This document shows, piece after piece, positions 3,335 to 23,512 of a stretch of DNA of 64,000 nucleotides; the stretch's first letter is position 1; each line of letters starts with the position of its first letter. The position numbers and the translations under genes are program-made. Source of the stretch: Schlesneria sp. (GTDB lineage: Bacteria; Planctomycetota; Planctomycetia; Planctomycetales; Planctomycetaceae); the NCBI GenBank assembly GCA_031412755.1, contig JANODP010000191.1, positions 2,454 to 66,453 on the forward strand, given 5' to 3'. A model generated the notes under the pieces. That model made no database searches. It was not told where the DNA came from and was given only the letters and a program-made list of their open reading frames with translations.

Positions 3335-3342
3335 GTGTGAGT

Positions 3343-3362: not shown

Positions 3363-3430
3363 ATGTTGGGGATGCGTGGCTTCTGCGTCGCTTTTCATCG
3401 CAGCGACAATCAATGCAGGGGGACGCACTC

Positions 3431-6727: not shown

Positions 6728-6761
6728 GGTGAATAAGGAGAAAGAAGTAAGTTGCCCGCTT

Positions 6762-7381: not shown

Positions 7382-7474
7382 AAAGCGTAGGGGGAAGGGA
7401 ACGGGTAAAAACCCAGCCGGCCGATTGCTCGCTTCCGTGAAAGAAAACAAGCGGCCGGGCTGGACGCCTGAAAA

Positions 7475-8106: not shown

Positions 8107-8360
8107 GGGGTGCCGGGGCGTAGCCCTGGCGAGTGTAGGTGCATCGTGGCGTGGAACGACTGACCATCGGGCGGACAGGGAGCGCAGCGAACAACCGCCC
8201 CCCCGAACTACACTCGCCAGGGATTGAACGGCCGTAGCCGTGAAAGCCCTGGCACCCCGAAGCTGGGGAGGGGACTGGAGTTGTCGCAATTCGTTGCATC
8301 GAACCACGGACGTCCGCCGCGGACCGATTCCGGACCTGTCGGCGGATGGATTCCGGACCT
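8107..8360. promoter_or_regulatory. Highly structured intergenic region 3' of relaxase 1 (candidate oriT/ssi or ncRNA)
   Basis: 13-bp stem 8107-8119/8246-8258 (one G-T), perfect 15-bp stem 8124-8138/8208-8222, direct repeat GATTCCGGACCT at 8326-8337 and 8349-8360. Confidence 0.45.
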
Positions 8361-8361
8361 T

Positions 8362-9228
8362 TCATGAGGCACCCCCTTGCGGCAGTCGGATCAGCGGTTG
8401 CAGCTCGTCGCCGTCGGTGCCGTAGAAGATCGGCTCGGTCAGTGCCTTCTCGGCCGTCCAGTCCGCAAATGCCGCGAACCGGTGGAGCGCTGCCCCTTCC
8501 CTCGACGCCACGGCTTTCCGAAGGAGATCACGCCGGCCGGGAGTGGGGGACACGTGCAGCACGGTGAACGACTCCGCGGTCGTCTTGAAGTGCCGCTCGT
8601 GGAGTCGTCCGGCGAGCATGGCCGCGAATCCGGGTGTCTTGGAGTTCGCGATCTGTTGGATGCCTGATGTACCTCGGTCCAATTCGAGGTAATAGGCTTT
8701 CGAGTGCTGGCCGATCTGCAACGCAAACGCGGCATCGGGTGCGCAGACGAGACGTGGCTTCTCTCGGATGAGGGTGAAGATCCGATATCGCTCGTGCGGT
8801 TCGCGAGCAAGCGGATTCACCTCGTCCCACTCGCCGAACCAACCGAGCACCGCGACGTCTGGATGACGGAGGACGGCCTCATTGAGGGTGACGTGGACTT
8901 GCGCGACGGCGGTCCAGTGAAACAAGTGCGTCCAGTCGGGAGTTTTTGTCGTCACGTGCAGATATCGCTCGTCGCCGTATTCGGCGGCGACCAGTTCCGC
9001 CCCCATCCGGCTCGGAAAATAGACGGGTGCCGGATTTCCAGCGGACGGGTTCAGCGCCTGCATCCGCGTTTTGCCAATCAAACCCGCCGCGTGAAGCTCC
9101 TGCAGGATGGCTCGCATCACCCGGTCATTGGAGACTCCGACGACGTGTTGAATCATCGGACGAGTCATCGTGTAGTAGTCACACACGGACTTGATCACGG
9201 CGAGTTTCCTGGGAGAAAGGACATTCAT
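8362..9228 (-). CDS. Replication-relaxation (Replic_Relax-like) protein 1
   Basis: N-terminal winged HTH, HLFHWTAVAQV, PDAAF…YYLELDRGT motifs. Confidence 0.8.
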   Translation of the reverse strand: MNVLSPRKLAVIKSVCDYYTMTRPMIQHVVGVSNDRVMRAILQELHAAGLIGKTRMQALNPSAGNPAPVYFPSRMGAELVAAEYGDERYLHVTTKTPDWTHLFHWTAVAQVHVTLNEAVLRHPDVAVLGWFGEWDEVNPLAREPHERYRIFTLIREKPRLVCAPDAAFALQIGQHSKAYYLELDRGTSGIQQIANSKTPGFAAMLAGRLHERHFKTTAESFTVLHVSPTPGRRDLLRKAVASREGAALHRFAAFADWTAEKALTEPIFYGTDGDELQPLIRLPQGGAS

Positions 9229-9237
9229 GACATCGAC

Positions 9238-11085
9238 CTACAGCAGCGGATTGCCATTCGTCTCGATCTGGCCCGCTCTCTCTTGCGATACACCGAGAAC
9301 CTCGATCCGCGGGTGCAGAACCCGTTGGAGACGTTCCGTGGTTTCTCGCTCAATGACGCAGGGGGACGTAAACACCTCAGACCGATAGTTCTCCTCGATC
9401 ATTGCGCTAACGCGGTCGATCGCACTTGACTGGCAGCGCATGATTTTTGGTAAATCCCAACTCAGATAACCGGGAGCGTGCCGTCGGACGTCGACGCGGT
9501 AGAGCGCCGGATCATTCACCATGCGGAGCAGTGCCTGACCGGTCTTGAGCAGCCGGATCTCCTTCGCCCAGAGCGCCGCCTGCTCCTCGAACGTGTAATA
9601 CGACCGCCGCGACAGTTCCCGAAACGTCTCATACACGGGGAGGATCGACTGCCCGATGCTCATGCCGAATGTCTGCGATTTGCTGCCGCCCTCGCCGGTC
9701 GATTCGTTCTCGCCGTGCCCGGAGGATCTTCCAGCGCTTGAGTTGGTTGTCCGGCCTTCGGTGTGGCTGTTGCCCGATGTTCGGAGGTCGTGTGGGACAC
9801 CAAATCGACGAGCGGTGCTGTTGCTACTGGAATCACCGGCACTCGAACCGTTCGATGTCGAATTGGAGAATTGTTCCGACCAGTTCTTGCCGACGGTTTT
9901 CTGCCAATTGGTCGCTTCGGCTTCCGACTGTGACCATGTGGCGAGTTGGATGATCCGTTGTTCGCTCAAGAGTTGGCGGCGGGTGTAGACCTCGTCTTTG
10001 ATCCGTTCCGGGTCATAGGTGATCGACGCGAGTTCGTGGCCGAGGATGTCCGCGTCCTCGCCCTGCACTCCCATGATGAGCCGCGACTGGGCCTGGAAGA
10101 TCAGGGACGTGAGATCGGTGTCCCCTCGCTTGAGTTGCGAGAGTGATTGATGCGAGAAGAGGAGACGGACATCAAGTTGCCGGACCTCCGGGATTGCCTC
10201 TTCAATGTCCGGCCCGACGAACCGTTGGAACTCGTCAAGCAAGACGTAGGTCGGATATCGCACTCCGCGAGGCAACGACCTCGCAGTCGCGAGCAGCTCA
10301 TTCAGCACCATCCCGCCGATGGCGTCCGCGAGTTGCGACGACAAGCGGTTTTGCGGGGATAAGTTGAGGATGACAATCTTGCCCTCACGCATGAATCGGA
10401 GGACATCCAGGCGGTTCTCGGTTGAACCGAAAATACTGCGGAGAATTGGATTCTCGAAAAACGGTTTCAACCGATTCCGGCTCGATTCGAGAATGCGGCC
10501 GGCTTCGCCACCTCGGGCTTGGACGATCTCATTCCATTCGGCGCGCAATTGCTCGGGAAGCCGTGCAAGGAGGGGATCGTGGAGCATGCTGCCGGGCATG
10601 AGCAAATGCGCGCAGTCGGCCACCGTCAGTCCCAACTGGGCGACGGCCCACATCGCATTGAAGACCCAACGTGCGAGTCTCGGCATTTCCTCGATGTTCT
10701 GGCTTGCCCACGCCCGGAGAATCACATCGCCGGCACGCTGTGTCTTGAAGTATCCGTGGGCGGGCGTATCGAACAGCAACGGGTTGAACGTCGGCACGAT
10801 GTCCTCGCGGGACGCGTCGATATACACGACACGGTCACGAATCCATGACGGGCAGTACGGGGATGCAAACCACAACAAGAGCGATTGGGAGAAACTTCCC
10901 ATCCGGTCAAAGATGAAGAACGAGGCGACGCTCATGCTCATGAGTAACTGGTGGATCATGGCCTCGATCGCCGTGGTTTTGCCCTTTCCCGTGCCGCCGA
11001 TCAGGTGCCAATGCGTCCCGAAGGTTGTGGACGGAATCCGCACGCTTTGTCCCGATCGGGAATCTCTTCCAAGTAGTAAATTCAT
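9238..11085 (-). CDS. VirD4/VirB4-like P-loop ATPase 1 (coupling-protein-like)
   Basis: Walker A GGTGKGKT, Walker B VLLDEFQ, RQ…LFSHQSLSQL; Ser/Gly/Thr-rich insert. Confidence 0.85.
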   Translation of the reverse strand: MNLLLGRDSRSGQSVRIPSTTFGTHWHLIGGTGKGKTTAIEAMIHQLLMSMSVASFFIFDRMGSFSQSLLLWFASPYCPSWIRDRVVYIDASREDIVPTFNPLLFDTPAHGYFKTQRAGDVILRAWASQNIEEMPRLARWVFNAMWAVAQLGLTVADCAHLLMPGSMLHDPLLARLPEQLRAEWNEIVQARGGEAGRILESSRNRLKPFFENPILRSIFGSTENRLDVLRFMREGKIVILNLSPQNRLSSQLADAIGGMVLNELLATARSLPRGVRYPTYVLLDEFQRFVGPDIEEAIPEVRQLDVRLLFSHQSLSQLKRGDTDLTSLIFQAQSRLIMGVQGEDADILGHELASITYDPERIKDEVYTRRQLLSEQRIIQLATWSQSEAEATNWQKTVGKNWSEQFSNSTSNGSSAGDSSSNSTARRFGVPHDLRTSGNSHTEGRTTNSSAGRSSGHGENESTGEGGSKSQTFGMSIGQSILPVYETFRELSRRSYYTFEEQAALWAKEIRLLKTGQALLRMVNDPALYRVDVRRHAPGYLSWDLPKIMRCQSSAIDRVSAMIEENYRSEVFTSPCVIERETTERLQRVLHPRIEVLGVSQERAGQIETNGNPLL

Positions 11086-12023
11086 GGCTGTGCTTCCTGA
11101 ATTGCTTCTCTGATGAGTTGGTCGTATCGGTCCTGCAGCTCTTGGAGCACCATGTCCCGTTGCATGCCGTCGGGAAGACGCCCCTCAATCGTGGACCGTT
11201 CCCGTTCGTACCATTCCGTGAGACGTGTGGGAGCATGACGTCGCTCTTCGGTCTCTCGTTTGGTCTGTTCCACCTTGGACGCATCATCCTCGCGCTTCTT
11301 CGTCTCATCAAGAACCGAGCGTTCCTTGTCTCTCGCTTCGGCAATCTTCGGCAGCATGCCGGAGATCATCTCCTGCGCGGCTATCCACGCCTCCGCGGGA
11401 GCGATACTTGGAGGGAACTTGGTTTGTAGATTCGCGCCGAAGAGGGAGTGGGGGAATGTCTCTTCCAGGAGTGCGGCATGTTCCTCGTAGAACCGGATGA
11501 CCTCGGCTCGTGCTTCATCGGTCTTGGCAAACCGCTCCCTCTCTCGCTTCGCTTCCTCTTCGAGTCGATGTTGTCGTTCCCGTTCGAGCACGGGTTGCAA
11601 CCGTGCCTGGTGCTCCCTCTCCTGATGCTCTTTTGCCAATGCCTCCCGCCGTGATGCCTTCTCGGAAGATCGACGCTGCGCTTCTGCCGCTTTGCGGCGG
11701 CTCCATGTGATCATCGCCTCCACTGGCGCTCCCGCGACAGCAGCGATGAGCGACAGCAGCAACGTGGCAACACCGAATGTCACGGCCGCGGCCAGACCTG
11801 CACGGATGAGAAGCATCAGGAACTCCGCCACCCGCGCCGGACTCCAGACGGCAGCGCCCGTCACGATGTACGCGAGGCAAACCGCCGCTGAGAGCCAGGA
11901 GGCACGACGCATCGTGAGCGAGTCGGGTCGAGCCAATCGTTCGGCGGTGACAAACAATAGGCAGATCAGCACGATGAGTGCCGGGAACTCGTCCGGGTGA
12001 ATGAGGTCCAGAAGTTGAGACAC
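11082..12023 (-). CDS. Membrane-anchored coiled-coil protein
   Basis: 3-4 N-terminal hydrophobic segments then charged helical region; GTG 12023 preceded by AGGAGG; stop overlaps the ATPase start. Confidence 0.75.
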   Translation of the reverse strand: MSQLLDLIHPDEFPALIVLICLLFVTAERLARPDSLTMRRASWLSAAVCLAYIVTGAAVWSPARVAEFLMLLIRAGLAAAVTFGVATLLLSLIAAVAGAPVEAMITWSRRKAAEAQRRSSEKASRREALAKEHQEREHQARLQPVLERERQHRLEEEAKRERERFAKTDEARAEVIRFYEEHAALLEETFPHSLFGANLQTKFPPSIAPAEAWIAAQEMISGMLPKIAEARDKERSVLDETKKREDDASKVEQTKRETEERRHAPTRLTEWYERERSTIEGRLPDGMQRDMVLQELQDRYDQLIREAIQEAQP

Positions 12024-12036
12024 GGCTGCTGCCTCC

Positions 12037-12741
12037 TTATGACTCGGGCGTCGGAAACGGGGGAGTGCCGTAGAACTCTGCTTCGACGCGAAATTCATGG
12101 ACACCCGCGTCACGGAGCCGCTGGCGCCACGGTGCAACCTCAAATTGATCGACGAAATAGAAGCCGACGACGTGGCCCTGCTTGCCGTAGGCGGTCAGCG
12201 CTTGCACCAGTTTCTCCCGCGACGCCTCAGTATCCGGAGCGTTGTCGAGCATGTCGGAGAGAACAAAGAAGGCGGACTTGGCTTTCCCGTTCGAGACATG
12301 AACATCGGACGCAACATATTCAAGCGCATGGCGAACGCCGTCATGAATCATCGAACCGTTCGGATTTGCCTGCTTCAGCAGGAATTTCCGGAACCTGTCC
12401 GCGGTCGGAAATGCCCTTCGGAGTTCGAGTGGCGTACCCTCCCAGAGTAAGGATCTGTTCGTGCCAGAGAGCTGCGCGAGGATGACTTTGTCGTGAGTGC
12501 CGCTGTGGTCGTCGTAATAGCGCTTGAGCACGGACATCAGGAAGGAATAGGCCTGCCCGTCGTCGGCCATCTGGTGTTGAAATGACCCCGACAGGTCAAT
12601 TGCCACCACGCACACGTACTCGTGGTCTTCGTGAAAGGCGGCCACCTGCTCGCGGTCCCGCGTACGCTCGCATCCCACGAGGACGCCGACGCACGCCGCG
12701 ATTTGGACCAGAATTCGACAAGAGCGGAGAGTGAGAGTCAT
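12037..12741 (-). CDS. Putative lipoprotein with VWA-like domain
   Basis: Lipobox-like VLVGC; MIDAS-like VAIDLSGS and later VLSDML; start ATG 12741 overlaps the upstream stop. Confidence 0.65.
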   Translation of the reverse strand: MTLTLRSCRILVQIAACVGVLVGCERTRDREQVAAFHEDHEYVCVVAIDLSGSFQHQMADDGQAYSFLMSVLKRYYDDHSGTHDKVILAQLSGTNRSLLWEGTPLELRRAFPTADRFRKFLLKQANPNGSMIHDGVRHALEYVASDVHVSNGKAKSAFFVLSDMLDNAPDTEASREKLVQALTAYGKQGHVVGFYFVDQFEVAPWRQRLRDAGVHEFRVEAEFYGTPPFPTPES

Positions 12742-13391
12742 GACAGATTTTCCTTTCTTGAAAGGGCAACACACTTGCGGCTCAGACTCAGCGAGTGCAG
12801 GACCGCGAATACGACGATCGTGCAATAGACGACGGTCCCCAAGATCGCCGTCACAGAGAGTGCCGCTCCGTTCCAGGTCACGCGGACGAGTGAAAGGTAG
12901 AAGAGGCAACTTTCTCCAATGAGCAAGATGGCGGCCAGAGTGACAGTGAGATCCTTGTTTCGCTTCGACACACCCTCTTGCGACTCGGACGTGTCATCGT
13001 CGGCGAGCCAAAGGAGAAGCACATTGGCCCACGCGATCCAGACGAACACCATGAGCAGCAACGCCGCTGGTTGGGCAAGGTCGATTCGGTGCGTCGCCTC
13101 ATAGTCCTGCAGAAAACTGAGGAAAGGGAACGCCTTGTAGAGCCGGACATTGAGTGGAGGAACGAATTGCTTCAGGCCGTCCGCAATCAGCGTGAGATAG
13201 ACGCTGCTCAGAATGATCTTGGTCAAGAATTGCCAAATCATGTAGGCGCAGCGAGCCCAGAGCAGTTCCCAGTTGAATGGCCTGCGTGATGGATACGGGG
13301 CATAGACGGGATACGATGTCGATGCCGCTCGCCCGCCCAAGTCGGCACTTGTGTCAGGGCTCAAATTTGCCACGCGATAGGATGTGGACAC
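12738..13391 (-). CDS. Integral membrane protein (about 4 TM)
   Basis: Four hydrophobic stretches; first gene of the coupled minus-strand operon; start uncertain. Confidence 0.65.
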   Translation of the reverse strand: MSTSYRVANLSPDTSADLGGRAASTSYPVYAPYPSRRPFNWELLWARCAYMIWQFLTKIILSSVYLTLIADGLKQFVPPLNVRLYKAFPFLSFLQDYEATHRIDLAQPAALLLMVFVWIAWANVLLLWLADDDTSESQEGVSKRNKDLTVTLAAILLIGESCLFYLSLVRVTWNGAALSVTAILGTVVYCTIVVFAVLHSLSLSRKCVALSRKENLS

Positions 13392-13496
13392 GGTTTCGAT
13401 CTCCTTTCAGAGTCGGTGCAGTAATGGGTAGTGACCTTTGCACGCACCGACAGCGCAAAAGATCCTTCGGATTCGCCAACGCATGCTGGCGAAATG

Positions 13497-13519
13497 AAAA
13501 AACCCGCTCTTGGCGGGTT
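13497..13519 (-). terminator. Terminator-like hairpin in the leader of the transfer operon
   Basis: Minus strand AACCCGC-caaga-GCGGGTT followed by TTTT; second hairpin at 13472-13493. Confidence 0.45.
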
Positions 13520-13921
13520 GGAAAAAGCAGTTGCGCGGGGCCAAACTGTATGGCACAATCCGTCCCGTGTCTGTGCCCCGGCGAGGCTTCAAAGAAAGAA
13601 AGTTCGCTGGGTTGCAGAGGTTGCTAGTTCCAACTTCTGTAGCCAAGGGAGTTGAGGTGGGCGGGTCAACTCCCGGTTTTTCATATACGATTGTCCTCAC
13701 ATTTCTGCTGTTAGCTCAGCAAGTCAATCACGGTCTTGGAGCTTCATGTGCAATCTGTCGAGTAATACGGTGATAGCGTAGATTTCCGAGGTTCTTGGCA
13801 GATGCATCCTTGTTCACATGCATTACAATAAACCCCGCAACGAATCGTCGAGAGCACATAGTCACACTTTGGAGAATTTTGGACACGAAGTATCAACAAT
13901 GCTGAAATGTAGGTGCTATTC

Positions 13922-15073
13922 ATGAGCCAACACGGAGACAGAGCCAATGGACCATTGGCAGTACGGAAGAGAAAAGAGGCCGGCTTGACACAGTTGGCCC
14001 TCGCGGCGCAAGCGGGAGTCGACAAGATGACAATCTGTCGACTCGAAAAGAATGAGCCCATTCTTCTGAAGAATTTGAAGCGAGTCGCGACTGCCTTGAA
14101 ACTTCCTTTGAAGCAGTTGATGCGGACGCCAGAAGGTACAGATCAGATTGCACGCGACGGCCCGCTTCGAAAGCGATTTGTGATCCGGACGTTTCCTGAC
14201 GGCTATAAACCACCAGTGTCCGAACAAGTATACGGCTACAAAACAACGTATCTGGAACACGTCGCCCGCGCCCGAGACCTATTCGTATTCTTTCACGGAC
14301 TCGGTTTGGATGCCGACGATTTCCTTCCGTTTCTGAAGTCCACGTCGCGACACACAGTTGCAATCACCCTTCCGGGGTTTGAAGAAGTCCAGGATCAGAT
14401 GCAATCACACATGTTTTGTTTGGAAACCCATATCCATCTCGTCGTCTCGTTTTTGATGTACTTACACAATTCCTATCCCACCAAGCGGCTGCATCTCGTC
14501 GGATTTTCGGTCGGAGCGGATATTCTTGTCTGGGTTGTTGAAGCGCTGCGCCACGCTGGCCTGAATCCGGGAATCTCGTCAGTCTTGCTTTGGGACTGCA
14601 ACATCAATCACAAGTCAATGACCATTTCGAAAGCGATCGCGCGCCTCAAAGCTCGGGACCCGCTGGATTGCTTCAAGACGTTCATGAATGCAAGTCGCAA
14701 TTTGATTGAGTTCATTCACCGACTCAAATATTTGCAGACGATTTCAAAGAAATCGTTAGAGCGAGTGAAGAACTTTGCAGCGGAAGTGGTTGACCGCTGG
14801 CCCGAAACGAAAATCGACACTTTCTTGAAACACGCCAAGATGATGAGTCAATTTGAGGGTGTCAGGACGCGGTTCATTTTTTCTTCGGATAATGGAGGGC
14901 TTGTTACAGAGTTGAAGAACAAAGCCCCAGCCGACATCGGCGACATCCTTGATGCGGATGATCGTCAGCATTTTGACTTTCTAAAACCGGAAGTACTGGA
15001 ACAATTGATCGAAGGCACCATTCGAAATCGAATTCGCAGCGTGACATCGCTGCAAGCAGCGGCCAAACGTTGA
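13922..15073 (+). CDS. XRE-family HTH fused to an alpha/beta-hydrolase domain
   Basis: RKRKEAGLTQLALAAQAGVDKMTICRLEK HTH; FFHGLG oxyanion motif, GFSVG nucleophile elbow, C-terminal His (QHFDF). Confidence 0.8.
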   Translation: MSQHGDRANGPLAVRKRKEAGLTQLALAAQAGVDKMTICRLEKNEPILLKNLKRVATALKLPLKQLMRTPEGTDQIARDGPLRKRFVIRTFPDGYKPPVSEQVYGYKTTYLEHVARARDLFVFFHGLGLDADDFLPFLKSTSRHTVAITLPGFEEVQDQMQSHMFCLETHIHLVVSFLMYLHNSYPTKRLHLVGFSVGADILVWVVEALRHAGLNPGISSVLLWDCNINHKSMTISKAIARLKARDPLDCFKTFMNASRNLIEFIHRLKYLQTISKKSLERVKNFAAEVVDRWPETKIDTFLKHAKMMSQFEGVRTRFIFSSDNGGLVTELKNKAPADIGDILDADDRQHFDFLKPEVLEQLIEGTIRNRIRSVTSLQAAAKR

Positions 15074-15458
15074 AAGTGTCGCGTGGAATTCAGTTTGTCG
15101 GGGCCGAATCCGATTTTTCTCAGGAACGTCCAACTACGGCGTCTAGATGCAAGCAACTGTTGGACAGCTAAGGCTCGTGCTTTTGCACGCGAATCGCCAA
15201 TCGAAAGGTTGTGAAAAGGGGAAGAAGTCTGCTGTGTGGCAATCCCTTTGGGGACAGATTGCGCGACCACACATTGCGACGCAATCAGATCGTTCCGCCC
15301 GTGAGTACGATTGACTCAAGCCAAAGATGCCCCGTGTCCTCTCGGAAACGGGGCGGCCTGAACGATGTCAAGCACAGTGAGAACACTTTCCGTGTGGGGG
15401 GGCAGAACTTCGGTATTCGCCGTAAGGTCAACCCACCAATCGCGACTGCTGTGAAACT

Positions 15459-15704
15459 TCAGCCACTTCTTTTCGGTGATCGACTTCTGCGTGCGTCACG
15501 AGCCTTCGATTGGGCGGCGTAGCAGACGAATGTCGCCACGGTCCGGTGCCAGTTGCGTCCAAGTTCCTTCGGCCCGATCGTGGCTGGTGGAAATCCCCGC
15601 TTTTCCATCCAGGACAGAAGTCCCTCCGCCAGCTCGTCGACGCGATTCCACGCACGAGCTTGCACGGCATCGAGTAGATCTTTCAATGCGGCGTCGGGGT
15701 CCAT
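15459..15704 (-). CDS. Small hypothetical protein
   Basis: MDPDAALKDLL…; starts 1 nt after the upstream stop. Confidence 0.6.
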   Translation of the reverse strand: MDPDAALKDLLDAVQARAWNRVDELAEGLLSWMEKRGFPPATIGPKELGRNWHRTVATFVCYAAQSKARDARRSRSPKRSG

Positions 15705-15705
15705 G

Positions 15706-15900
15706 TCAGAGTTCCTCCCCGAATTCGGCCATCGCTTCCGGCCAATACTTGATACCTCCGTCATTGAAGGCATCCGGCTCAACGGTGTACCCGTCTCCGC
15801 ATTCCGTGCATTCGACGTCCATGGTGGCGTCGTCGACGCCGGTGATCTCCAGCTGCCCGCCGCAACTGCGGCACTTCCCGTCGTTCAATTCCACAAGCAT
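15706..15900 (-). CDS. Small zinc-ribbon protein
   Basis: CRSCGG…CTECGD, acidic; start ATG 15900. Confidence 0.7.
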   Translation of the reverse strand: MLVELNDGKCRSCGGQLEITGVDDATMDVECTECGDGYTVEPDAFNDGGIKYWPEAMAEFGEEL

Positions 15901-16189
15901 CGAACAGTCTCCCTGTGGTCCAATGAGCGGTTCGCTCAGGCGAATCTCTGCCGAACATCGGCAGAGCGGACCAAGCGTGCCACGGGAGAAAGCGCTAGCG
16001 CAAATCACTCAGAACAATTGGCGTTGCAGTCCGGGTGCATTGGGATGATCTCGCTGTGCCACGGTCCGGTCCTGAGGTGACGATTCAACGATCGCACACT
16101 GCTCTACTGACGAACCCCGCATCGTACGATGCAGGGTTGTTTGGTGATGGCAACCTGCAATGCAGGGTGCCAGAAGCGAGAGCGTCGTC

Positions 16190-16525
16190 TCAGAACGGTA
16201 CTTCCCCACTGCCACTCGGTGCACTGTTGCGAGAATCCTCCGGCTGCTGGCCGGGGAGCGGCGTCGAGTAGCAATACTCGATGGCCTTCTGCAATGCGAA
16301 GACCAGAGCGGGCAAGTCGGCCGGTCCGTAGGACTGCGAGTCCTTCCATTCACCAGCAGTGCGATCGTAGTAGCGGCGCGGCGCAATCGTGATCGCACGG
16401 AAGTGCCGGGGTCCCTCGTCCCCTGCGACTTGGTTGAGCCAGATGACCACGCTGATGCCGCTGTGGACGGGACTGATCTTTTTCTCCGGCGGCTTCTTCT
16501 GTGGGGCGGGCGATTTCTTGGCCAT
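16190..16525 (-). CDS. Small PC4/SSB-like putative ssDNA-binding protein (copy 3) with SSB-type tail
   Basis: ISVVIWLN…RAITIAPRRYYDRTAGEWKDSQSYGPADLP; disordered C-terminus ending EVPF. Confidence 0.6.
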   Translation of the reverse strand: MAKKSPAPQKKPPEKKISPVHSGISVVIWLNQVAGDEGPRHFRAITIAPRRYYDRTAGEWKDSQSYGPADLPALVFALQKAIEYCYSTPLPGQQPEDSRNSAPSGSGEVPF

Positions 16526-16690
16526 GACGGATCTCCTGTCGGTGGCAGATGCAAAGGACCGAAACGCTCTCGATGAGCGCGTCACGACACCGTGACACCA
16601 CTTCAAACTGCCTGAGAGGACGGCGATGCGCAAGAGCCTCCGTCCGGAGCGATCAGCAAAAGTGAGTCACCTCACGAGGAGAAATGACAA

Positions 16691-17473
16691 TCAGAACAGA
16701 CGGAGCTGATTCCTACGGTCTGTCATTGGGTTGCCAGATTCTTTGCCATCTTTGACAGACGGTTCTTTGCTTGTCGCGGCGTCTGGGGGCGACTCCGGTT
16801 CGTTGGCAATCTGCTGAATGGAATGAGGACAGTCTTCAACGGGAACCTCCTTGAGTACGCCTCGCAAGTCGAATCCGGTGCGGTAGACCAGCCGCCGTTC
16901 ATCGGTGAAGCTGTTGCCCCAGATGACATAGCCATACAGATTTCTCAGCGCGAGATTGATCGCCGTCATCCGGACACATCTCAGGTCGATGTCCTGCCCG
17001 ACGAATTCCCAGTGAGGCCTGAGGTCGGCCACCGCCAGCAGCATCCGGCCTGATCCGCAGCACGGGTCGCACACGGACTTCTTGTCGTTCCCCTCATCCT
17101 CGCCGATGGTCATCTTGGCCATCATCTGGCAGATCGGTTCCGGTGTGAGGAACTGCCCGGCTTCGCCGTAGGTGATGGCCCCCTGGAACAGGTCGCCGAG
17201 AATGTCCTGGCGAGTCTCTTCCATCGCATTTACGAGTGTCCCGAATGCCTGTGAAATGGAATCGCACCCGCGTTTGCCCGGCTTTCCTTCGGTATGCCGT
17301 TTCACCGTGGCCAAGTACTGGTCCTCCATCCGGCCGCCGGAGAGGGCGCACACGCTCATGTGCAGGAAATCTTCAAACGCCTGTGCGCGACTGACGCCGC
17401 TGCGTCGCGATGTCTCTTCAAGCAGATCGAAGACGGGTTTGGTCTCGGGGTAGAGGAAGGCTTCCTTGGGCAA
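16691..17473 (-). CDS. Short HsdM-like (N-6 DNA methylase family) protein
   Basis: GQFLTPEPICQMMAKM and CDPCCGSGRML; no NPP(Y/F) motif; ends QLRLF. Confidence 0.75.
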   Translation of the reverse strand: MPKEAFLYPETKPVFDLLEETSRRSGVSRAQAFEDFLHMSVCALSGGRMEDQYLATVKRHTEGKPGKRGCDSISQAFGTLVNAMEETRQDILGDLFQGAITYGEAGQFLTPEPICQMMAKMTIGEDEGNDKKSVCDPCCGSGRMLLAVADLRPHWEFVGQDIDLRCVRMTAINLALRNLYGYVIWGNSFTDERRLVYRTGFDLRGVLKEVPVEDCPHSIQQIANEPESPPDAATSKEPSVKDGKESGNPMTDRRNQLRLF

Positions 17474-17492
17474 TGCGAACGAGGGAACAGGA

Positions 17493-18032
17493 TTAGAAGA
17501 GGTGACCCGATGGCGGCGGCGGTTCCACGGGAATTGTCGGAGTCACGGGAGCAGCTGGTTGCTTGCTCTTTCGTCCGCGTGACTTCGCGGGAGCAGGCTG
17601 TTCGGGTTCTGTCGAACGAGGTGTGCGGATCGCGTGGAGCACTTCGCGGTGAGCATGGTCGATCACGTCCACGAGCGCATTGAGCTGCTCTTGTGCGAGT
17701 TCGCCAAGCGGCTCGGCGAGGCGTTGCACGATCTCCTCGACGACGACCGCACGCACTTGGTCATCGGACAGAGTCTCCGCCGTGGGATCACGGACAGGCC
17801 ACCGGACCAGCGACAATTCGAGCGTTCCCCTGCCACCCTCCCCAGCCGAGACTCGCGGCATGCGATGGACGAGTACCGTGATCGGTTGATGGGGAACACC
17901 GTTCCGGGTCAGCCAGGACAAGTCCTCTCGGAGTCGGTCAACGATGTCCGTGAGGACACGGACATTCTGTGCCAATTCGTCCACGGCGGTTTGCAGACGA
18001 TCCGCGTCCGTCTCGTCCGGTCGTCCGCTCAT
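17493..18032 (-). CDS. Hypothetical coiled-coil protein
   Basis: Helical, high-GC codon pattern; start re-assigned to ATG 18032. Confidence 0.6.
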   Translation of the reverse strand: MSGRPDETDADRLQTAVDELAQNVRVLTDIVDRLREDLSWLTRNGVPHQPITVLVHRMPRVSAGEGGRGTLELSLVRWPVRDPTAETLSDDQVRAVVVEEIVQRLAEPLGELAQEQLNALVDVIDHAHREVLHAIRTPRSTEPEQPAPAKSRGRKSKQPAAPVTPTIPVEPPPPSGHLF

Positions 18033-18216
18033 TGGCGCCGTTGGCGAGGATCCCACTCGCGTCATGTCACGGCCAGTATAGCGCAACCCGGCCGGGCTTG
18101 GATTCGATTCTGATCGCCAGACCACTGGGCTCTTTTGCTTCCCAAGGATCGAGCGGCACGCTCCCGTCGCTCCAAATCCTCTTCGCCCGCGCCGGGACAT
18201 GTGCTATCATCAGAGC

Positions 18217-18480
18217 ATGGAAACCGTCGTCCGCAATGTTCGGGATCTCCCCAAGAACGATCGCTCCGCCCTGGAGCGGGTCGTCGGGCACCAGTTGCGC
18301 GAGAGTCAACAGCTCGTGATTCAGGTCATGAGCGTGTCCCTCGAAGAGCCCGCGCAGGCACCGCTCGCGTCGGGCGAACTTCCCGCGTGGTGCAATGTCT
18401 ACCAGGGGCTCTCCGACCCCGAGATCGATGAGCTCGACAGTGCCATCGTCCGGTCGGATTTGAGCCGGGATTTCTCCTAG
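18217..18480 (+). CDS. Putative antitoxin (VapB-like)
   Basis: 87-aa acidic ORF ending 3 nt before a PIN-domain gene. Confidence 0.7.
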   Translation: METVVRNVRDLPKNDRSALERVVGHQLRESQQLVIQVMSVSLEEPAQAPLASGELPAWCNVYQGLSDPEIDELDSAIVRSDLSRDFS

Positions 18481-18483
18481 CCC

Positions 18484-18894
18484 ATGGCCGCCATTCTGCT
18501 CGACACCGATATCCTGTCCGAGGTTTTCAAGCAGCGTGACGCGACCGTCAAACAGCACGCAGCCGCGTATCTGCAGCAGCACGGCCAGTTCACCTTTTCC
18601 GAATTCAGTCGGTTCGAAGTGCGGCGGGGCTACTTGAGCAAACAGGCCACGAAACAACTGGCACTGTTTGACGTATTCTGCGGCCATTGCCAATTGCTGC
18701 CCGCGACCGAGGCCATTTTTGACCGTGCAGCCCAGGTGTGGGCATACGCCCGGCAGCATGGTCATCCCTGCGGCGATGCGGACGTACTCATCGCTGCCAC
18801 GGCGTTGGAACATGGCCTTGTGTTGGCGACCGGAAACCTCCGCCACTTTGCCTGGGTGCCGGGGCTCATCACCGCGGATTGGCGGCAACCGTAG
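18484..18894 (+). CDS. vapC: PIN-domain toxin
   Basis: ILLDTDILSE, FEVRRG, DADVLIAATAL, LATGNLRHF. Confidence 0.9.
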   Translation: MAAILLDTDILSEVFKQRDATVKQHAAAYLQQHGQFTFSEFSRFEVRRGYLSKQATKQLALFDVFCGHCQLLPATEAIFDRAAQVWAYARQHGHPCGDADVLIAATALEHGLVLATGNLRHFAWVPGLITADWRQP

Positions 18895-21115
18895 TCTGTG
18901 ATCCCGTTGGCAACCGATCCGCAGCGAACCTCCGCCGCGCGATGCGACGGATAATCTCGGCCCGCTCCGGATCAAAGGACTCACTAGGCGGCAGGGTCCG
19001 CAGGGAGAACGGGGCCGTGGGCATGCCGTCTACGAGCAGACGCGCATAGGCCGTGTATTTGGGAAGTCCCGCGAGATGCTCCGGCGTCACCTGCCCGGCA
19101 AACTTTCCGAGTTGGCGCGCCAATATGTCAGCATCATCGCTGCCCACCTGGAAGGCGACGACGGAACCGACGTTGCCCCACACCGCCTCGGCCGTGGTGT
19201 CGGTGAACTGTGCGAGGTACTGGTGAGCAACAGTCAGGCTCAAGCGGAATTTGCGAGCTTCTGACAATACCGAAGCGAAACTGTCCGTCGTGAAGTTCTG
19301 AAACTCGTCGACGTACAAGAAAAAGTCACGGCGCTCGCTTTCCGGAATGTCAGCACGGGTCATTGCGGCTTGCTGAATGCTCGTCACCAAGAGCGCGCCG
19401 AGCAGTGTGCTGTTGTCTTCCCCCAAGCGGCCTTTGCTCAGATTGACGAGGAGCACCTTTCCGTCGTCCATGATCTGCCGCAGATCAAGCGACGGGCCGG
19501 ACTGCGTCACGATCGCCCGAATGTTCGTATTCACGATGAAGGGCCGCAGCTTGTTTTGGATGGCAGCGACCGCTTCGGTTCGATAGTTGTCATTCCAACT
19601 CGCGAATTCGTGCATCCAGAACGAACGCACCACCTCATCGCGAATGAGAGGCACCGTCCGTTCGCGGAATGCCTTTTCGCCGAGCAGACGCATGACGGAC
19701 AGCAGGTTCCCGCGCTGCTCGACCATCGCGAAGACGGCGTTGCGGAGTGTGTCTTCCAGCCGCGGTCCCCACGAGTCGTTCAACTTCTTGAAGGCGCTGA
19801 CAACTCCCGACGTCACCTGATCGATCCGTGCCGGATCGCGGCAGGCGAGCGGATTGAAACTCACAGCACAGTCGCGACTGGCGGCATCAAACAGAATCAC
19901 GTCATTTGTTCGGTGCTTCGGCACCAGCCCGGCCACTGCATCGGCCAAGTCGCCGTGCGGATCCACGAGGCACACTCCCCGATCTGCGGCGAGGTCGGCC
20001 GCCAGCATGTTTTGCAGGAGGGTGCTCTTACCCATGCCGGTCTTGCCGATGACGTACAGGTGTCTCCTTCGGTCGTCGAGCGAGAGACCGACCACTCGCC
20101 GGTCGTCGCGGAACGCCACGTGTCCGAGCGGGACCGTCCTTTCTCTTTCCGAGTGGAGTACCGCCGGAGCTTCCAGTTCCGTGAAGTCGCTCGACTTCCA
20201 ACGTTCGGCGGCGCTGGTGGAGGTCGGTGGATGCCAGAGGGTCGCGAGTTCTTCGTGCGACAGCAGGAAGGACGACTGCCGGTGCTCGTTCGGACGACCG
20301 GCCCGAAACGTGGCCAGCCGCGAACGGGTAAAGGCCCCAAACGCCCCGGCCATCCTTCGGAGTCGTTCGATGGCGGCAGATCGTTGGTCGCGCGGGCCGC
20401 GCACGAACAGTCGAATGCGCGCCTCGAACAGATGCCCGCCGATCTTGTCGGCGGCGGCCTGCAGATCCTCTTCGCGTTCGTGCAGGCGGCTAGTCGATGT
20501 CTCCAGAAGACTGTGATGCGGGAGCGGGGTTCCGGCGGCCAGCAGTCCCAACAGCCAAGCGACGGGCCATTGCCCGCCGCGCAGGATGTGTTGTGCGTAA
20601 TAGCGGCCGAGCCGGTGATGGCGACGGAAAAACTCGCGGTTGAGCCGCTGCACCGCCTTGAGGGCGGCGTGACACCGCCGATGCGACGCGGGCGTGCAGT
20701 GGATCTCCACGCCACAGTCAAACACACAGTCGGGTTTGATGGAACGCAAAAGACTGCTCACTGGATCGGCGAAGGTCCGGTTCAACGCGTCCTCGAATTG
20801 AGCATGACGCAGAATGGGAAGCAGTTCCGGCACGAGAGTCAGATCTACCGACAAAGTCTGTGATACCGCGTGCACCGCATCGTCGGGTACATCCGTGAAC
20901 GAGCACTGCGGGTAATTGGCAATGATCGGGCCGAGCACGATTTCGCGGAGTGCATTCGGACACCGCAGGAGCAGCCCAATGTGCTCCCCCACCGCGCCGT
21001 ACACCAGCGTGAGCGAGCGGCGGTGCAGTCCCGACTGATGAATCGACGCGAGTGCCTTCTCCATGTAGCGAGGACCGCGTTCATTGTTGGCCGGTGCCGC
21101 GATGAGAGTGAGCAC
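18869..21115 (-). CDS. VirD4/TraG-like P-loop ATPase 2 (DUF87/TraD-type)
   Basis: Walker A GKTGMGKST, DPHGDLA, WGPRLE, Walker B LYVDEFQNF, SEARKFRLSLTVAHQYLAQ; start re-assigned to GTG 21115. Confidence 0.9.
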   Translation of the reverse strand: MLTLIAAPANNERGPRYMEKALASIHQSGLHRRSLTLVYGAVGEHIGLLLRCPNALREIVLGPIIANYPQCSFTDVPDDAVHAVSQTLSVDLTLVPELLPILRHAQFEDALNRTFADPVSSLLRSIKPDCVFDCGVEIHCTPASHRRCHAALKAVQRLNREFFRRHHRLGRYYAQHILRGGQWPVAWLLGLLAAGTPLPHHSLLETSTSRLHEREEDLQAAADKIGGHLFEARIRLFVRGPRDQRSAAIERLRRMAGAFGAFTRSRLATFRAGRPNEHRQSSFLLSHEELATLWHPPTSTSAAERWKSSDFTELEAPAVLHSERERTVPLGHVAFRDDRRVVGLSLDDRRRHLYVIGKTGMGKSTLLQNMLAADLAADRGVCLVDPHGDLADAVAGLVPKHRTNDVILFDAASRDCAVSFNPLACRDPARIDQVTSGVVSAFKKLNDSWGPRLEDTLRNAVFAMVEQRGNLLSVMRLLGEKAFRERTVPLIRDEVVRSFWMHEFASWNDNYRTEAVAAIQNKLRPFIVNTNIRAIVTQSGPSLDLRQIMDDGKVLLVNLSKGRLGEDNSTLLGALLVTSIQQAAMTRADIPESERRDFFLYVDEFQNFTTDSFASVLSEARKFRLSLTVAHQYLAQFTDTTAEAVWGNVGSVVAFQVGSDDADILARQLGKFAGQVTPEHLAGLPKYTAYARLLVDGMPTAPFSLRTLPPSESFDPERAEIIRRIARRRFAADRLPTGSQTTVAANPR

Positions 21116-21365
21116 GCGGCCAGCGTACAGCCTTCCCCGGACGCTTCGAATACTCAGCCGGAGTGAATTGATGGCTGATCTCTCTTCCGACGCTGGACTC
21201 CCCAAAACCGCCCCGTTCGATGTGCGTCGATCTCGCGAGGCGGTGCCGACTCGCTTCAGGTCCGAAGACTCTCTTCCTTGTTCCGTAGGGGCGGAAGAAG
21301 GGGCACGGCGTGATACCCGCACCGAGCACTGCGGAGGAACGAAGCAGCGGTTCGGAGCCTATCAA
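21081..21365 (-). CDS. Possible small hypothetical protein
   Basis: 94-aa ORF filling the gap between relaxase 2 and ATPase 2, TTG start overlapping the relaxase stop; no recognised motif. Confidence 0.3.
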   Translation of the reverse strand: MIGSEPLLRSSAVLGAGITPCPFFRPYGTRKRVFGPEASRHRLARSTHIERGGFGESSVGREISHQFTPAEYSKRPGKAVRWPRAHSHRGTGQQ

Positions 21366-22267
21366 ACGATGCCGGTTGGCGCGAGCGGTGGCGTCAGCCG
21401 GATTGGTTCACGCACAAACTGCGACGTCGGATGATGATTGACCAGACTCTGCCAGCCGCCATGGTGATCGTTAAGGATGGGCGATGTGACCGCGAGCGGT
21501 TCCGCGAGGAAGATGTCCTGCGTCGTCGCATAGCACAGCCGCCGATCCGGATTGCGGGCGCAACTGCGGGCCAACCAGAGAATGTGTTGGGCGCGTTGTG
21601 GCCCCTTCGTGAGAATCACCACGCGGAAGACCGGGCGTTGGCCGATGCGGCCGTGCTCCTGCCAACTGCGGAGCACCCAATCCTGGTACGTCTCATAGCC
21701 GAGCAGCTTGGTGCGGATGCTCTGTTCGCGCGGGGAATCCAACGGCTCTGTCGCATTGTCGATTTCGAACAGGACGTTGATCGACTTGCCACCGCTCTCG
21801 AACTGGAAGTGGCAATCCGGTTGTTGCCGGTATTCCCCTACCGCCAACATCAGCTTCCCATCTCCGTGAAACTTGGCCACGCGAATGCGCGCGGCGTGCG
21901 CACTCACGAGGGTATGGATGATGACCTCGGCAGTCGCCAACGTGTGTTGAAATCGCGACGGCGCGATTTCGGAAACCAATGTACGTGCCGGAGCGTTATC
22001 TTGGTCGGCATACAGGGCGCGGAAACCGGCGAAGGTCAGCCGGTAGTAGTGCATGAGTCCACCGCCTGCGATGCCCGCCGGCCAGCTCTTCACGAATCCC
22101 GCGTCGCCGAGCACCTGCATCCGTTCGCGCACGCGGCGTTCATCGCGGAACGGGTCATCGCCGAGGGTGACGCTGGCCTTCCGGATCTGTGCCGCAGTGA
22201 GCGGCGTCATTTCGAGAAGCGCGAGGAGCGCCGTATCGCGCTTGCTGAGGATCACAACTTGGGACAT
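21362..22267 (-). CDS. Replication-relaxation (Replic_Relax-like) protein 2
   Basis: wHTH (RRVRERMQVL..AGFV…YYRLT), FQHTLATAEV, QPDCHF…LFEIDNATE. Confidence 0.8.
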   Translation of the reverse strand: MSQVVILSKRDTALLALLEMTPLTAAQIRKASVTLGDDPFRDERRVRERMQVLGDAGFVKSWPAGIAGGGLMHYYRLTFAGFRALYADQDNAPARTLVSEIAPSRFQHTLATAEVIIHTLVSAHAARIRVAKFHGDGKLMLAVGEYRQQPDCHFQFESGGKSINVLFEIDNATEPLDSPREQSIRTKLLGYETYQDWVLRSWQEHGRIGQRPVFRVVILTKGPQRAQHILWLARSCARNPDRRLCYATTQDIFLAEPLAVTSPILNDHHGGWQSLVNHHPTSQFVREPIRLTPPLAPTGIV

Positions 22268-22315
22268 GCTCGGAGTGCTACGCTACCAGTCGTGGCGACA
22301 CTTCCCACTTGCCCG

Positions 22316-23512
22316 ATGAACCAACCTGGTGGATACATCGACGTTGACCGGCTTCAATCCGAGACCACACTGGAAGAGGCGGCGACCAAATGCGGCATTC
22401 CACTCGAGGTGAAAGGCTCCGGACCCGAGGTCCGCATCGATTGCCCCTTCGCGTGCGCTGGCGATCACTGCGGCCGGAAGGAGATCGCAATCAATACCGA
22501 CAATCCTCAGAAGATTTTCCAGTGTCATGCCTACGAATGCGGCTTCCGTGGGAATCTTCTGACGCTGATGCACGGGTTTCTCACCGGTGGCAAACCCTCG
22601 GGCGGCAAACTCAAGGGCGACGAGTTCCAACGCGTCAAACGAGTACTCGCCGGAACGGGCGAGCCAATTGCGGGCCGTCCGGCCTCCCGGCAGTCGCTGG
22701 CCACGAGCGAAGCCGCGACTCCCCCACTCCACGTCAACAAGCCGCTGATCGAAGCCTCGGAAGAGCGGGTCCGCGAACTCCACAACATCGACGAGAAACT
22801 CGTCCGCGACGTCGCGAAGATGAATCCGGCCGCGGCGACGTACGTCCGCCTTCACCCCTGTCTTTCTTCCGAGTCGATGACCAAATGGCGCTGCGGCTAC
22901 CTCGCGCATGACGGTGGCGGGGACAAACGCGGTTGGTCACTGCGCGGCAGCATCCTGTATCCCGTGCTCTCGGAGCACGGCAAGGTACTCGCTTGGGTCG
23001 GGCGTGACGTTCAATACGAACAGAAGGAACGAGAGTTTCTGCAACTTTCCTCGGTGGAACGATCGGGGAAAGATCCACCGGCGAAACACCGATTCCCCAA
23101 AGGCTTCCATCGTGGCGTCGAACTCTTCGGTCAGCACGCGAGCCGCCTGCAGGAATCCGGCTACCGCGAGTTCATCGCGAGCCACGGTCTCATCGTCGTG
23201 GAGGGCTTCAATGACGTGATCGGCCTCGACAATCTGGGAGTCCCCGCCCTCGGCATCATGTCGAACCGAATGACCGAAGAGCAGGGGGAGAAGATCGCAC
23301 GGTTTGCGAGGCAACTCGGCATCAACCGCGTGAATCTGATGTTCGACTGCGAAGCGAGTGGAGTTGCCGGTGCGAAAGAGGCACTCTGGTTCTTCGCCGA
23401 ACGGCGGTTGGACGTCCGCCTCGTGTGGTCACCGTGGATGCATGCAGGGGTGTTTCAGGACAAACAGCCTGAATCGATGACACGGGCTGATTTGGAAGTG
23501 CTAATCCAATAA
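22316..23512 (+). CDS. DnaG-type primase (Zn finger + TOPRIM)
   Basis: CPFAC…HC…FQCHAYECG Zn-binding region; IVVEGFNDVIGL and MFDCE TOPRIM motifs; start re-assigned to ATG 22316. Confidence 0.85.
   Translation: MNQPGGYIDVDRLQSETTLEEAATKCGIPLEVKGSGPEVRIDCPFACAGDHCGRKEIAINTDNPQKIFQCHAYECGFRGNLLTLMHGFLTGGKPSGGKLKGDEFQRVKRVLAGTGEPIAGRPASRQSLATSEAATPPLHVNKPLIEASEERVRELHNIDEKLVRDVAKMNPAAATYVRLHPCLSSESMTKWRCGYLAHDGGGDKRGWSLRGSILYPVLSEHGKVLAWVGRDVQYEQKEREFLQLSSVERSGKDPPAKHRFPKGFHRGVELFGQHASRLQESGYREFIASHGLIVVEGFNDVIGLDNLGVPALGIMSNRMTEEQGEKIARFARQLGINRVNLMFDCEASGVAGAKEALWFFAERRLDVRLVWSPWMHAGVFQDKQPESMTRADLEVLIQ

Follow-up and report, generated by a model that had tools for sequence, protein, structure and literature searches.

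Two pairs of relaxase-type nucleases and coupling-type ATPases in a family of tRNA-integrated islands of Planctomycetota

How does an integrated island move when the only "transfer" genes that it constantly carries encode relaxase-type nucleases and coupling-type motors? The question is raised by a 64,000-nucleotide stretch of DNA, called the window throughout, from contig C191 (JANODP010000191.1) of the 8.65-Mb assembly of a planctomycete, Schlesneria sp. Within the window lies a 44.6-kb island bounded by att repeats at a tRNA gene, and inside it are two genes for Replic_Relax-type nucleases, each beside an ATPase gene, that a preliminary description of this DNA had noted. All four were confirmed by Pfam: RR1 (8362-9228) with ATP1 (9238-11085), here called module 1, and RR2 (21362-22267) with ATP2 (18869-21115), here called module 2, all on the minus strand. 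Knowing how such islands move would reveal either an unrecognized DNA export route in a diderm phylum or a general intracellular role for pairs of MOBC-family nucleases and coupling proteins, and the same question applies to orphan pairs in phages, Clostridia and Patescibacteria. We find that the two modules recur in one fixed arrangement, and we favor, with roughly even confidence, the reading that they are the conserved core of a single family of integrative elements in Planctomycetota, each pair being a MOBC-family nuclease and its cognate TrwB-type hexameric motor.

Recurrence and separability of the two modules

Searches with the island proteins (tblastn) found paralogous islands with both modules, in the same order, on three further contigs of the window's own genome (C275, C420 and C215; C336, mentioned below, is also from this genome, G numbers denote genomes of the host family and L numbers related loci). 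Contigs with both modules were also found in other genera (G095, G316, G339, G334, G378, G412 and G285), and the same layout is shared by 11 islands from at least eight genera, four in the window's genome and seven in other genera. At the module 2 end the order is (HTH protein, 502-aa protein), primase divergent from RR2, ATP2, (G-x-LF protein), N6_Mtase-like protein and variable cargo; at the module 1 end it is (anchor), ATP1, RR1, small genes for putative SSB-like proteins, (small methyltransferase), xis/int and tRNA. A tRNA gene stands at the module 1 end in all 11 islands, and module 2 is never on the tRNA side. The targets include tRNA genes for Leu (CAG/CAA/GAG), Arg (ACG/CCT/CCG), Pro and Lys, and since the tRNA varies among islands the backbone must combine with different integrases. 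The possibility, left open by the preliminary description, that the modules never co-occur elsewhere thus does not hold.

Among 151 genomes of the host family that were searched, ATP1 was detected in 22 and ATP2 in 35. Where both are on one sufficiently long contig they lie 7.5-37 kb apart, on the same strand and with ATP2 upstream, on all such contigs but one (C207 of G394, where they are on opposite strands). The island family is present in about 15-23% of host-family genomes, often in multiple copies, and spans four or more orders of the phylum; its prevalence beyond the host family was judged from a scan of genome contigs. The homologues carry names such as Gemmataceae, Planctomycetia and similar.

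The two pairs have nonetheless diverged separately. Within each pair the ATPase co-diverges with its own nuclease (Mantel tests: ATP2 with RR2, r=0.75, p=3e-4; ATP1 with RR1, r=0.54, p=0.02), and between the pairs there is no correlation (ATP1 with ATP2, r=0.00, p=0.45). Two islands of one genome, C420 and C275, share 89% identity in ATP2 and 25% in ATP1, while C275 and G334 share 86% in ATP1 and 37% in ATP2. Each module also occurs by itself. Module 1 alone forms small islands in the order anchor, ATP1, RR1, SSB-like, xis, int and tRNA-Leu (e.g., L012), and 36 ATP1 loci from Pirellulales, Planctomycetales, Gemmatales and Isosphaerales mostly have no ATP2 within their 10-kb flanks. Module 2 alone, as primase, RR2 and ATP2, is found in G399 and on contig C336. 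The modules are, therefore, separable and exchangeable units which have repeatedly been joined in one fixed arrangement. Because the fixed order recurs and yet the modules can be separated and exchanged, neither chance accretion nor a strictly co-inherited single operon accounts for the architecture.

A 94-bp exact direct repeat (3225-3318 and 47813-47906) brackets the window's island at tRNA-Leu, the first copy consisting of the final 55 nt of the tRNA and 39 nt beyond, and because this tRNA-end sequence is exactly duplicated the region between the copies is one integrated island. Its left end holds tRNA-Leu(CAG) (3196-3279, plus strand; ARAGORN, Rfam tRNA), which with attL spans 3196-3318, followed by a tyrosine integrase (3341-4642, plus strand; Phage_integrase, E 3e-19) and an excisionase-type HTH_17 protein (4625-4918, minus strand; Pfam, E 2e-7); the second repeat copy is attR (47813-47906, plus strand). 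Integrases of 40-53% identity are found beside tRNA-Leu at the equivalent end of related islands, and the excisionase-type gene is kept beside int in G316, G095, G339, L012, L024 and L035. The right flank of the island was not syntenic in two same-genus genomes in an empty-site comparison. The first gene to the right of attR (47977-48681) is itself repeated, with two copies of 85-88% identity on one contig of a same-genus genome.

A tandem of two unrelated integrative elements, side by side at one tRNA by chance, would also produce two modules in one place, and it gains some plausibility from the solitary occurrence of each module and their uncorrelated phylogenies. On those grounds the suggestion of a composite, made in the preliminary description, is partly borne out. 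However, the same order and orientation in 11 islands, across at least four tRNA targets and integrase types, together with the single integrase of the window and the absence of an internal att copy between the modules in a repeat search of the window, argue for a recurrent architecture, and the placement of module 2 away from the tRNA adds to this. We consider a chance tandem very improbable.

The islands ferry both defense systems and biosynthetic cargo. In the window, the two gene pairs sit in the left 30 kb of the island and the biosynthetic cargo occupies its right part (30.8-46.7 kb). A set of minus-strand defense genes of ABC-3C/Lamassu-like type (23644-27424) comprises an LmuB/DUF3732-type ABC-3C ATPase (23644-25554), an MC4 middle component (25554-26246) and a Cap4/HamA/LmuA-like nuclease (26114-27424), and among the paralogous islands of this genome it is present only in that of the window. 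Also unique to the window's island is an XRE-type helix-turn-helix (HTH) domain fused to an alpha/beta-hydrolase-like domain (13913-15073, plus strand), situated between the modules. Between ATP2 and the G-x-LF gene there is an inserted VapBC-like pair with a PIN-domain toxin (18199-18480 and 18484-18894, plus strand). G316 has this pair in another place, with the N6_Mtase-like gene on one side and ATP1 on the other, and L011 has a PIN gene ahead of ATP2. The L009 island has a large serine recombinase within its backbone and, inserted around ATP2 (L009:7574-9027), a diversity-generating retroelement (bAvd and reverse transcriptase) with a Laminin_G_3 protein. The window's genome also holds at least 12 Replic_Relax genes in total, including a third, very divergent ATPase/RR type of about 23-25% identity to module 1 on contigs C209 and C360 and two RR genes 10 kb apart on C347; further contigs of interest for such genes are C381, C274 and C336.

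The nucleases, the ATPases and their neighbors

The Replic_Relax family (PF13814) consists of nucleases with a winged helix-turn-helix (wHTH) and a PD-(D/E)XK domain (PMC3424549). In Pfam it corresponds to the MOBC relaxase class, and it adjoins a VirD4 coupling protein in streptococcal integrative and mobilizable elements (IMEs; PMC5357655), MOBC and VirD4 together being a known compact mobilization module (PMC5357655, PMC3424549). Both nucleases of the window score about twice the gathering score of 25.3 bits (RR1, 47.3 bits; RR2, 53.3 bits). That the pairs are highly divergent, as had been noted earlier, was confirmed, with no BLASTP similarity between RR1 and RR2 and 24% identity over 332 aa between ATP1 and ATP2. 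The columns common to 10 RR1 sequences, nine RR2 sequences and one actinobacterial member are RD..L / R..RRRL..L..G, H, E, PD, E-x-D-x-T and K..GY, and because these preserve the wHTH block along with the catalytic-type residues H, E, PD, ExD and K, both families look catalytically intact.

The ATPases are more distant from characterized proteins. ATP1, a soluble ATPase of 615 aa in the TrwB/VirD4 superfamily, matches Pfam TrwB_AAD_bind, T4SS-DNA_transf and DUF87 above their cut-offs, its coupling-protein scores being 29.6 and 25.3 bits in partial matches (cut-offs for T4SS-DNA_transf and TrwB_AAD_bind, 20.5 and 20.1 bits). It has a Walker A motif at residues 30-37, an S/T/N-rich linker and a conserved C-terminal domain, belongs to a family of ~580-630 aa across Planctomycetota, and had no matches in the PDB by sequence. 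ATP2 is a soluble ATPase of 748 aa in which a ~300-aa N-domain precedes a TrwB-like motor; its C-terminal half matches TrwB_AAD_bind, DUF87 and TraG-D_C, with a partial coupling-protein match of 35.0 bits, and its GTG start at 21115, as assigned earlier, agrees with the N-termini of homologues. A hydropathy scan found no hydrophobic segment and no transmembrane helices in either protein. The best NCBIfam match was conju_CD1115 (23.6 bits for ATP1 and 43.1 for ATP2, against a cut-off of 250), the TraD families scored 15-34 bits against cut-offs of 366-648, and FtsK_SpoIIIE of Pfam also fell under its cut-off. Because every NCBIfam coupling-protein score is far under its cut-off, ATP1 and ATP2 appear to be members of the coupling superfamily which belong to no curated family. 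An AlphaFold model of ATP2 (pLDDT 78) gave TrwB (1e9s) as its best Foldseek match (E 1e-11, target-normalized TM 0.63-0.66, ~450 columns), followed by HerA, Cag-beta, VirB4/TrwK (TM 0.32-0.36), DndH-C and HerA-type defense ATPases, and a profile built from 24 ATP2 homologues likewise had TrwB and DotL as its best solved relatives.

With two ATPases of the VirB4/VirD4/HerA superfamily in one island, it was earlier proposed that one could act as VirB4 and the other as VirD4 in a minimal type IV secretion system (T4SS). The long N-domain of ATP2, which gives it a VirB4-like length, and the presence of TrwK/VirB4 among the fold matches are in keeping with this. However, neither ATPase is as close to VirB4 as it is to TrwB or to the other ATPase; neither matches PF03135 or has a VirB4 match above noise in Pfam or NCBIfam, and the ATP2 model reaches a TM of 0.65 to TrwB against 0.32-0.36 to VirB4. 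A plasmid of Embleya sp. (NZ_CP108778) is informative here, as it encodes a coupling protein with 33% identity to ATP2 over 469 aa (E 2e-67) and the same long N-domain, in a cluster ordered TrbL_4, PrgI, VirB4-like ATPase, ATP2 homologue, Replic_Relax and SLT/NlpC_P60. This cluster is a genuine Gram-positive-type T4SS with the ATP2 homologue as its coupling protein, beside a separate VirB4. Since ATP1 has no similarity to the Embleya VirB4-like ATPase and the ATP2 homologue is the coupling protein, the division into VirB4 and VirD4 is unsupported. No VirB3/B6/B8-type partner genes were found on the island, and islands with ATP1 only or ATP2 only exist, so that a minimal T4SS of this kind is highly doubtful. 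The Embleya homologue differs from ATP2 in having an N-terminal transmembrane segment, and its neighbors, the channel, VirB4 and cell-wall hydrolase genes, are all absent from the planctomycete islands. Module 2 descends from a coupling-protein/relaxase pair of T4SS ancestry and sits among replication-type genes.

Module 1 is compact. RR1 follows ATP1 after 9 nt, and ATP1 is directly followed by RR1 at 26 of the 27 loci compared in Pirellulales, Planctomycetales, Gemmatales and Isosphaerales. Upstream, the stop of a gene for a putative membrane anchor (11082-12023, minus strand) overlaps the ATP1 start in an arrangement of translational coupling; by hydropathy the protein has N-terminal transmembrane helices followed by a highly charged coiled coil, and it is 65% identical to its L014 counterpart. 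Positional equivalents of 280-350 aa that end at the ATP1 start were found at 18 of 20 loci, and because of this ATP1 resembles a coupling protein in which the membrane domain is supplied by a protein of its own. The anchor is one of three envelope proteins encoded directly upstream of ATP1 that the preliminary description had not listed. The others, both on the minus strand, are a lipoprotein with an LVGC lipobox and a vWA-like DxSxS motif (12037-12741; 81% identical to L014:8351-9049, with no Pfam match) and a polytopic membrane protein with three transmembrane segments by hydropathy (12738-13391; homologues in L014, L022 and L023), and they are found upstream of the anchor only in the window and a subset of related islands. 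The open reading frame (ORF) 12097-12450 on the plus strand was rejected as an antisense artifact of the lipoprotein gene.

On the other side of RR1 are small genes for putative SSB/PC4-like proteins, also on the minus strand. The first (7037-7450) is kept after RR1 in most loci; the second (7475-7726) is the last 83 codons of ORF 7475-8365, whose tblastn matches are confined to residues ~207-296; a third, elsewhere in the island (16190-16633), was found by tblastn with a 105-aa protein of L009, and cross-matches indicate that the three are paralogues. A small orphan DNA methyltransferase (6026-6727, minus strand; motif I DPMTGSG, motif IV HPPY; PADLOC MTase_II) is a further backbone gene, with homologues at the equivalent position in C275, G334, G095, L014 and others.

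Approximately 630 nt downstream of RR1 lack conserved coding capacity and contain a conserved structured DNA element (8101-8270, minus strand). Folded as single-stranded DNA, this region is far more stable than shuffled sequences, with z scores of -5.8 for the window, -5.2 for L014 and -4.6 for L012. The outer stem of the element is GGGGTGCCAGG...CCGGCACCCC and the inner stem CCCTGGC...GCCAGGG; the extension of the inner stem has a different sequence in each island with its complementarity kept, and an alifold consensus of seven islands has 33 pairs, with compensatory changes in 13. The element is single copy in the island and matched no Rfam family. It resembles an origin of transfer (oriT) or a single-strand origin, and is a candidate for either. 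Module 1 thus has the attributes of an export module: a membrane tether, a candidate oriT, putative SSB-like proteins and a place beside xis/int.

The neighbors of module 2 are of a different character. RR2 matches PHROG 9381, "replication initiation by nicking" (E 1e-12), and is divergently transcribed from a DnaG-like primase with a zinc finger and a Toprim domain (22316-23512, plus strand; TIGR01391, E 1e-8; PHROG DNA primase). The longer ORF 21431-23512 (plus strand), antisense to RR2, was rejected in its first ~295 codons, which are spurious, homologues aligning only from residue ~277-300. In the window RR2 and ATP2 stand 246 nt apart; some relatives have cargo between the two genes. Beyond ATP2 are two adjacent minus-strand genes whose products both end in pentapeptides of clamp-binding (or shared recognition) type. 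One encodes a conserved backbone protein ending in G-x-LF (17493-18200), with homologues in C336, G334, C420, C275, C215, G378 and L009; the ending is kept in seven of seven homologues. The other encodes an N6_Mtase-like protein (16691-17473; Pfam) with S-adenosylmethionine (SAM) motif I, no NPPY and a C-terminal QLRLF; across 10 islands (the window, C420, C275, C336, G316, G334, G378, G285, G412 and G095) this end reads QLRLF in seven and QLKLF, QLELF and QKKLF in one each. Pentapeptides such as QLRLF and G-x-LF resemble beta-clamp-binding motifs. Two methyltransferase-like ORFs (6026-6931 and 16691-17473) align with successive stretches of the mad2 profile, as if one gene had been split by insertion of module 1. 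This idea was rejected, since each ORF has a SAM motif I of its own and the first encodes a small methyltransferase that is complete.

The most conserved backbone protein, of 502 aa, is encoded further along (28109-29617, minus strand) and has 385 homologues, the best 120 of which are 64-88% identical. It has no Pfam domain and sequence searches of the PDB were empty; a borderline Foldseek match to RctB domains 2-3 / RepE hints weakly that it could be a replication initiator of the winged-helix kind. A perfect 24-nt direct repeat (28019-28042 and 28075-28098, spacing 56 nt) and a 23-nt inverted repeat (27560-27582 and 27618-27640) lie 3' of this gene and are possible iterons or an origin. Next to it is an HTH and coiled-coil protein (29593-30117, minus strand), the conserved part of ORF 29593-30648, to which tblastn matches only residues ~155-351. 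Because a primase, a nicking PHROG, a Rep-like hint and clamp-type C-termini surround it, the neighbors of module 2 suggest a role in replication or establishment for this half of the backbone.

Could both pairs, then, be purely intracellular, acting in nick-initiated replication, resolution or segregation of the excised island with no part in transfer? The PHROG match of RR2 and its pairing with a primase are consistent with this, as is the inclusion of a putative plasmid Rep (pUA140) in the Pfam family (PMC3424549). Soluble ATPases could be helicases or translocases, and related pairs exist in Bacillus phages. Moreover, plasmid homologues of ATP2, which are commonest in Streptomyces, Bacillus, haloarchaea and Sulfolobus, are on plasmids mostly typed as non-mobilizable. 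However, the tie of ATP1 to a membrane protein at 18 of 20 loci is hard to square with a replication helicase, the best fold match among solved structures is to a conjugative coupling protein, the actinobacterial homologue lies within a T4SS operon, and the elements already have a primase or Prim-Pol and possibly a Rep. Overall, we regard an exclusively intracellular role as improbable.

A possible route out of the cell

The absence of a recognizable mating-pair formation (MPF) apparatus, a central point of the preliminary description, was upheld: searches of the ORFs between 3 and 31 kb with Pfam, NCBIfam, PHROGs and PADLOC detected no MPF family. The neighborhood of a related island has a T4SS_pilin/TrbC-like gene (L009:495-833), which was considered and set aside, as it has no homologue in the window's genome and is outside the conserved backbone. 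With int, xis, att sites, a MOBC-type relaxase, its own coupling-type ATPase and no channel, the island has exactly the gene content of an IME. It might, therefore, be a helper-dependent island whose two mobilization sets serve different helper T4SSs, supplied in trans by a rarely captured plasmid or integrative and conjugative element (ICE). IMEs with MOBC and VirD4, and IMEs with two relaxases, are known (PMC5357655). One MPF_T plasmid and some chromosomal MPF proteins have been recorded in the phylum (preprint 10.1101/2024.01.22.576637), and plasmids are often missing from metagenome-assembled genomes (MAGs).

The gene content that the preliminary description saw as mobilizable is thus well founded, but the helper is harder to locate. 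VirB4 (PF03135) was absent from the window's genome and present in one of the 151 host-family genomes, which is without these elements. Of 14 genomes that bear the element, several of which consist of a single contig, none had a match above the cut-off of AAA_10, the profile that detects Gram-positive-type VirB4. By these profiles no compatible helper conjugative element is visible in the host range, with the caveat that many of the genomes are MAGs from which plasmids may be missing and that a very divergent VirB4 may escape the profiles. A survey of complete planctomycete genomes reports that their chromosomes have no complete MPF and that conjugation between planctomycetes is undocumented, and lists only MOBF and MOBP relaxases (preprint 10.1101/2024.01.22.576637). 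The membrane domain by which coupling proteins dock to a T4SS is also missing from the ATPases, and the elements are common and often present in several copies even though helpers appear to be lacking. Mobilization by a helper is, therefore, a possibility to be taken seriously, albeit an unlikely one. Whatever the route across the outer envelope layers, it is not encoded by a recognizable T4SS, either on the element or in the host lineage.

The reading of the two pairs as one conserved core suggests the following course of events. Int and Xis would excise the island, and RR1 would bind and nick the structured site at 8101-8270. ATP1, tethered to the inner membrane by the anchor protein as a two-polypeptide coupling protein, would then pump a DNA strand out, and the exported strand would be coated by the small putative SSB-like proteins. 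RR2 and ATP2 would most likely serve nick-initiated replication or establishment of the excised circle, or provide a second DNA-processing motor, working with the primase, the possible Rep-like initiator and the two proteins with clamp-binding-type C-termini.

Several points weigh against this proposal. Transfer, nicking and excision of the islands are inferred, not observed, and an inner-membrane motor alone cannot obviously cross a diderm envelope. Both ATPases lack an N-terminal membrane domain in addition to their low NCBIfam coupling-protein scores, and ATPases resembling T4SS coupling proteins accompany nucleases in defense systems too (mad8, DndH and HerA-DUF4297 matches). The 8101-8270 element could be an RNA or a single-strand promoter instead of an oriT. 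The RR2-ATP2 spacer has no comparable fold and no cis site was found for RR2, while RR2 and ATP2 are often split by cargo (e.g., L009 and C336). The split between export and replication is drawn from neighboring genes, and the Rep-like assignment of 28109-29617 depends on a poor model (pLDDT 63). Considering these points, the full proposition of a T4SS-free, conjugation-like route in Planctomycetota, in which a MOBC nickase, a tethered soluble motor and a hairpin oriT drive export and the second pair replicates or establishes the island, is offered tentatively, and we judge it rather unlikely. If true, such a route would explain the spread of multi-copy, tRNA-targeting islands in a phylum without observed conjugation. 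The int, xis and att sites, the candidate oriT and the replication genes could also be used to build genetic tools for a phylum in which genetic manipulation is difficult.

Comparison with known systems

Pairs of ATPases and nucleases are also found in defense, and the modules could be defense cargo in the manner of the MADS system, which contains the ATPase-nuclease module MAD7/MAD8 and likewise joins methyltransferase, ATPase and nuclease genes (PMC13662399), or of HerA-DUF4297 and DndH-type systems. The mad8 profile of PADLOC matches both ATPases (E 4e-13 and 2e-20), the two methyltransferase-like genes match mad2 weakly, the Foldseek list includes DndH-C, SIR2-HerA and HerA-DUF4297, and the island holds other defense genes (the ABC-3C/Lamassu-like set at 23644-27424). 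However, RR1 and RR2 match no PADLOC model, mad7 included, and no homologues of mad3-mad6 were found, so that the resemblance to MADS is limited to mad8 with weak mad2 and mad1. The pairs are also a constant backbone in which the actual defense genes, namely the ABC-3C/Lamassu-like set and the VapBC-like pair, are the variable cargo, they sit within the mobility backbone, linked to xis/int, putative SSB-like genes and the cis element in 26 of 27 loci, and TrwB ranks above the defense ATPases in the fold search. A defensive function for the pairs themselves is accordingly quite improbable.

A further parallel is the "DNA translocation operon" of the Bacillus phages 0305phi8-36 and SPO1, which combines a MobC-like relaxase, a TraG-like ATPase and membrane anchor proteins with no T4SS, its function being putative (PMC3357382). 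ATP2 itself matches Bacillus phage proteins and phrog_5156. In those lytic and temperate phages, however, the genes are dispensable accessories, whereas here they are the invariant core of islands without virion genes.

The islands with ATP1 only (L012: anchor, ATP1, RR, Prim-Pol, xis and int) look analogous to the actinomycete integrative and conjugative elements (AICEs). AICEs of the pSAM2 type are small elements that integrate at tRNA genes, carry int, xis and either a Prim-Pol or a replication gene, and transfer by a single translocase in place of a T4SS. Their motor, TraB, is FtsK-like and membrane-embedded, moves double-stranded DNA and needs no relaxase. In contrast, the motor of the islands is TrwB-like and soluble and has a nuclease as its partner, and the islands live in diderm hosts.

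The nearest known relatives of the two pairs are the MOBC modules of CloDF13 (mobB-mobC) and pAD1 (traW-traX) and the streptococcal IME_Class_8, in all of which a MOBC nuclease likewise stands beside a VirD4/TrwB-superfamily ATPase in a compact unit with a recombinase and no channel (PMC5357655, PMC3424549). Unlike these, the planctomycete islands carry two divergent pairs in a fixed order, with ATPases that have no membrane domain; ATP1 has a separate membrane/coiled-coil partner, the integrase is a tRNA-targeting tyrosine recombinase and VirB4 is almost undetectable in the hosts. What is new, in our reading of the two pairs as one conserved core, is thus the dual, soluble and split-anchor arrangement of a familiar MOBC module in an almost T4SS-free phylum.

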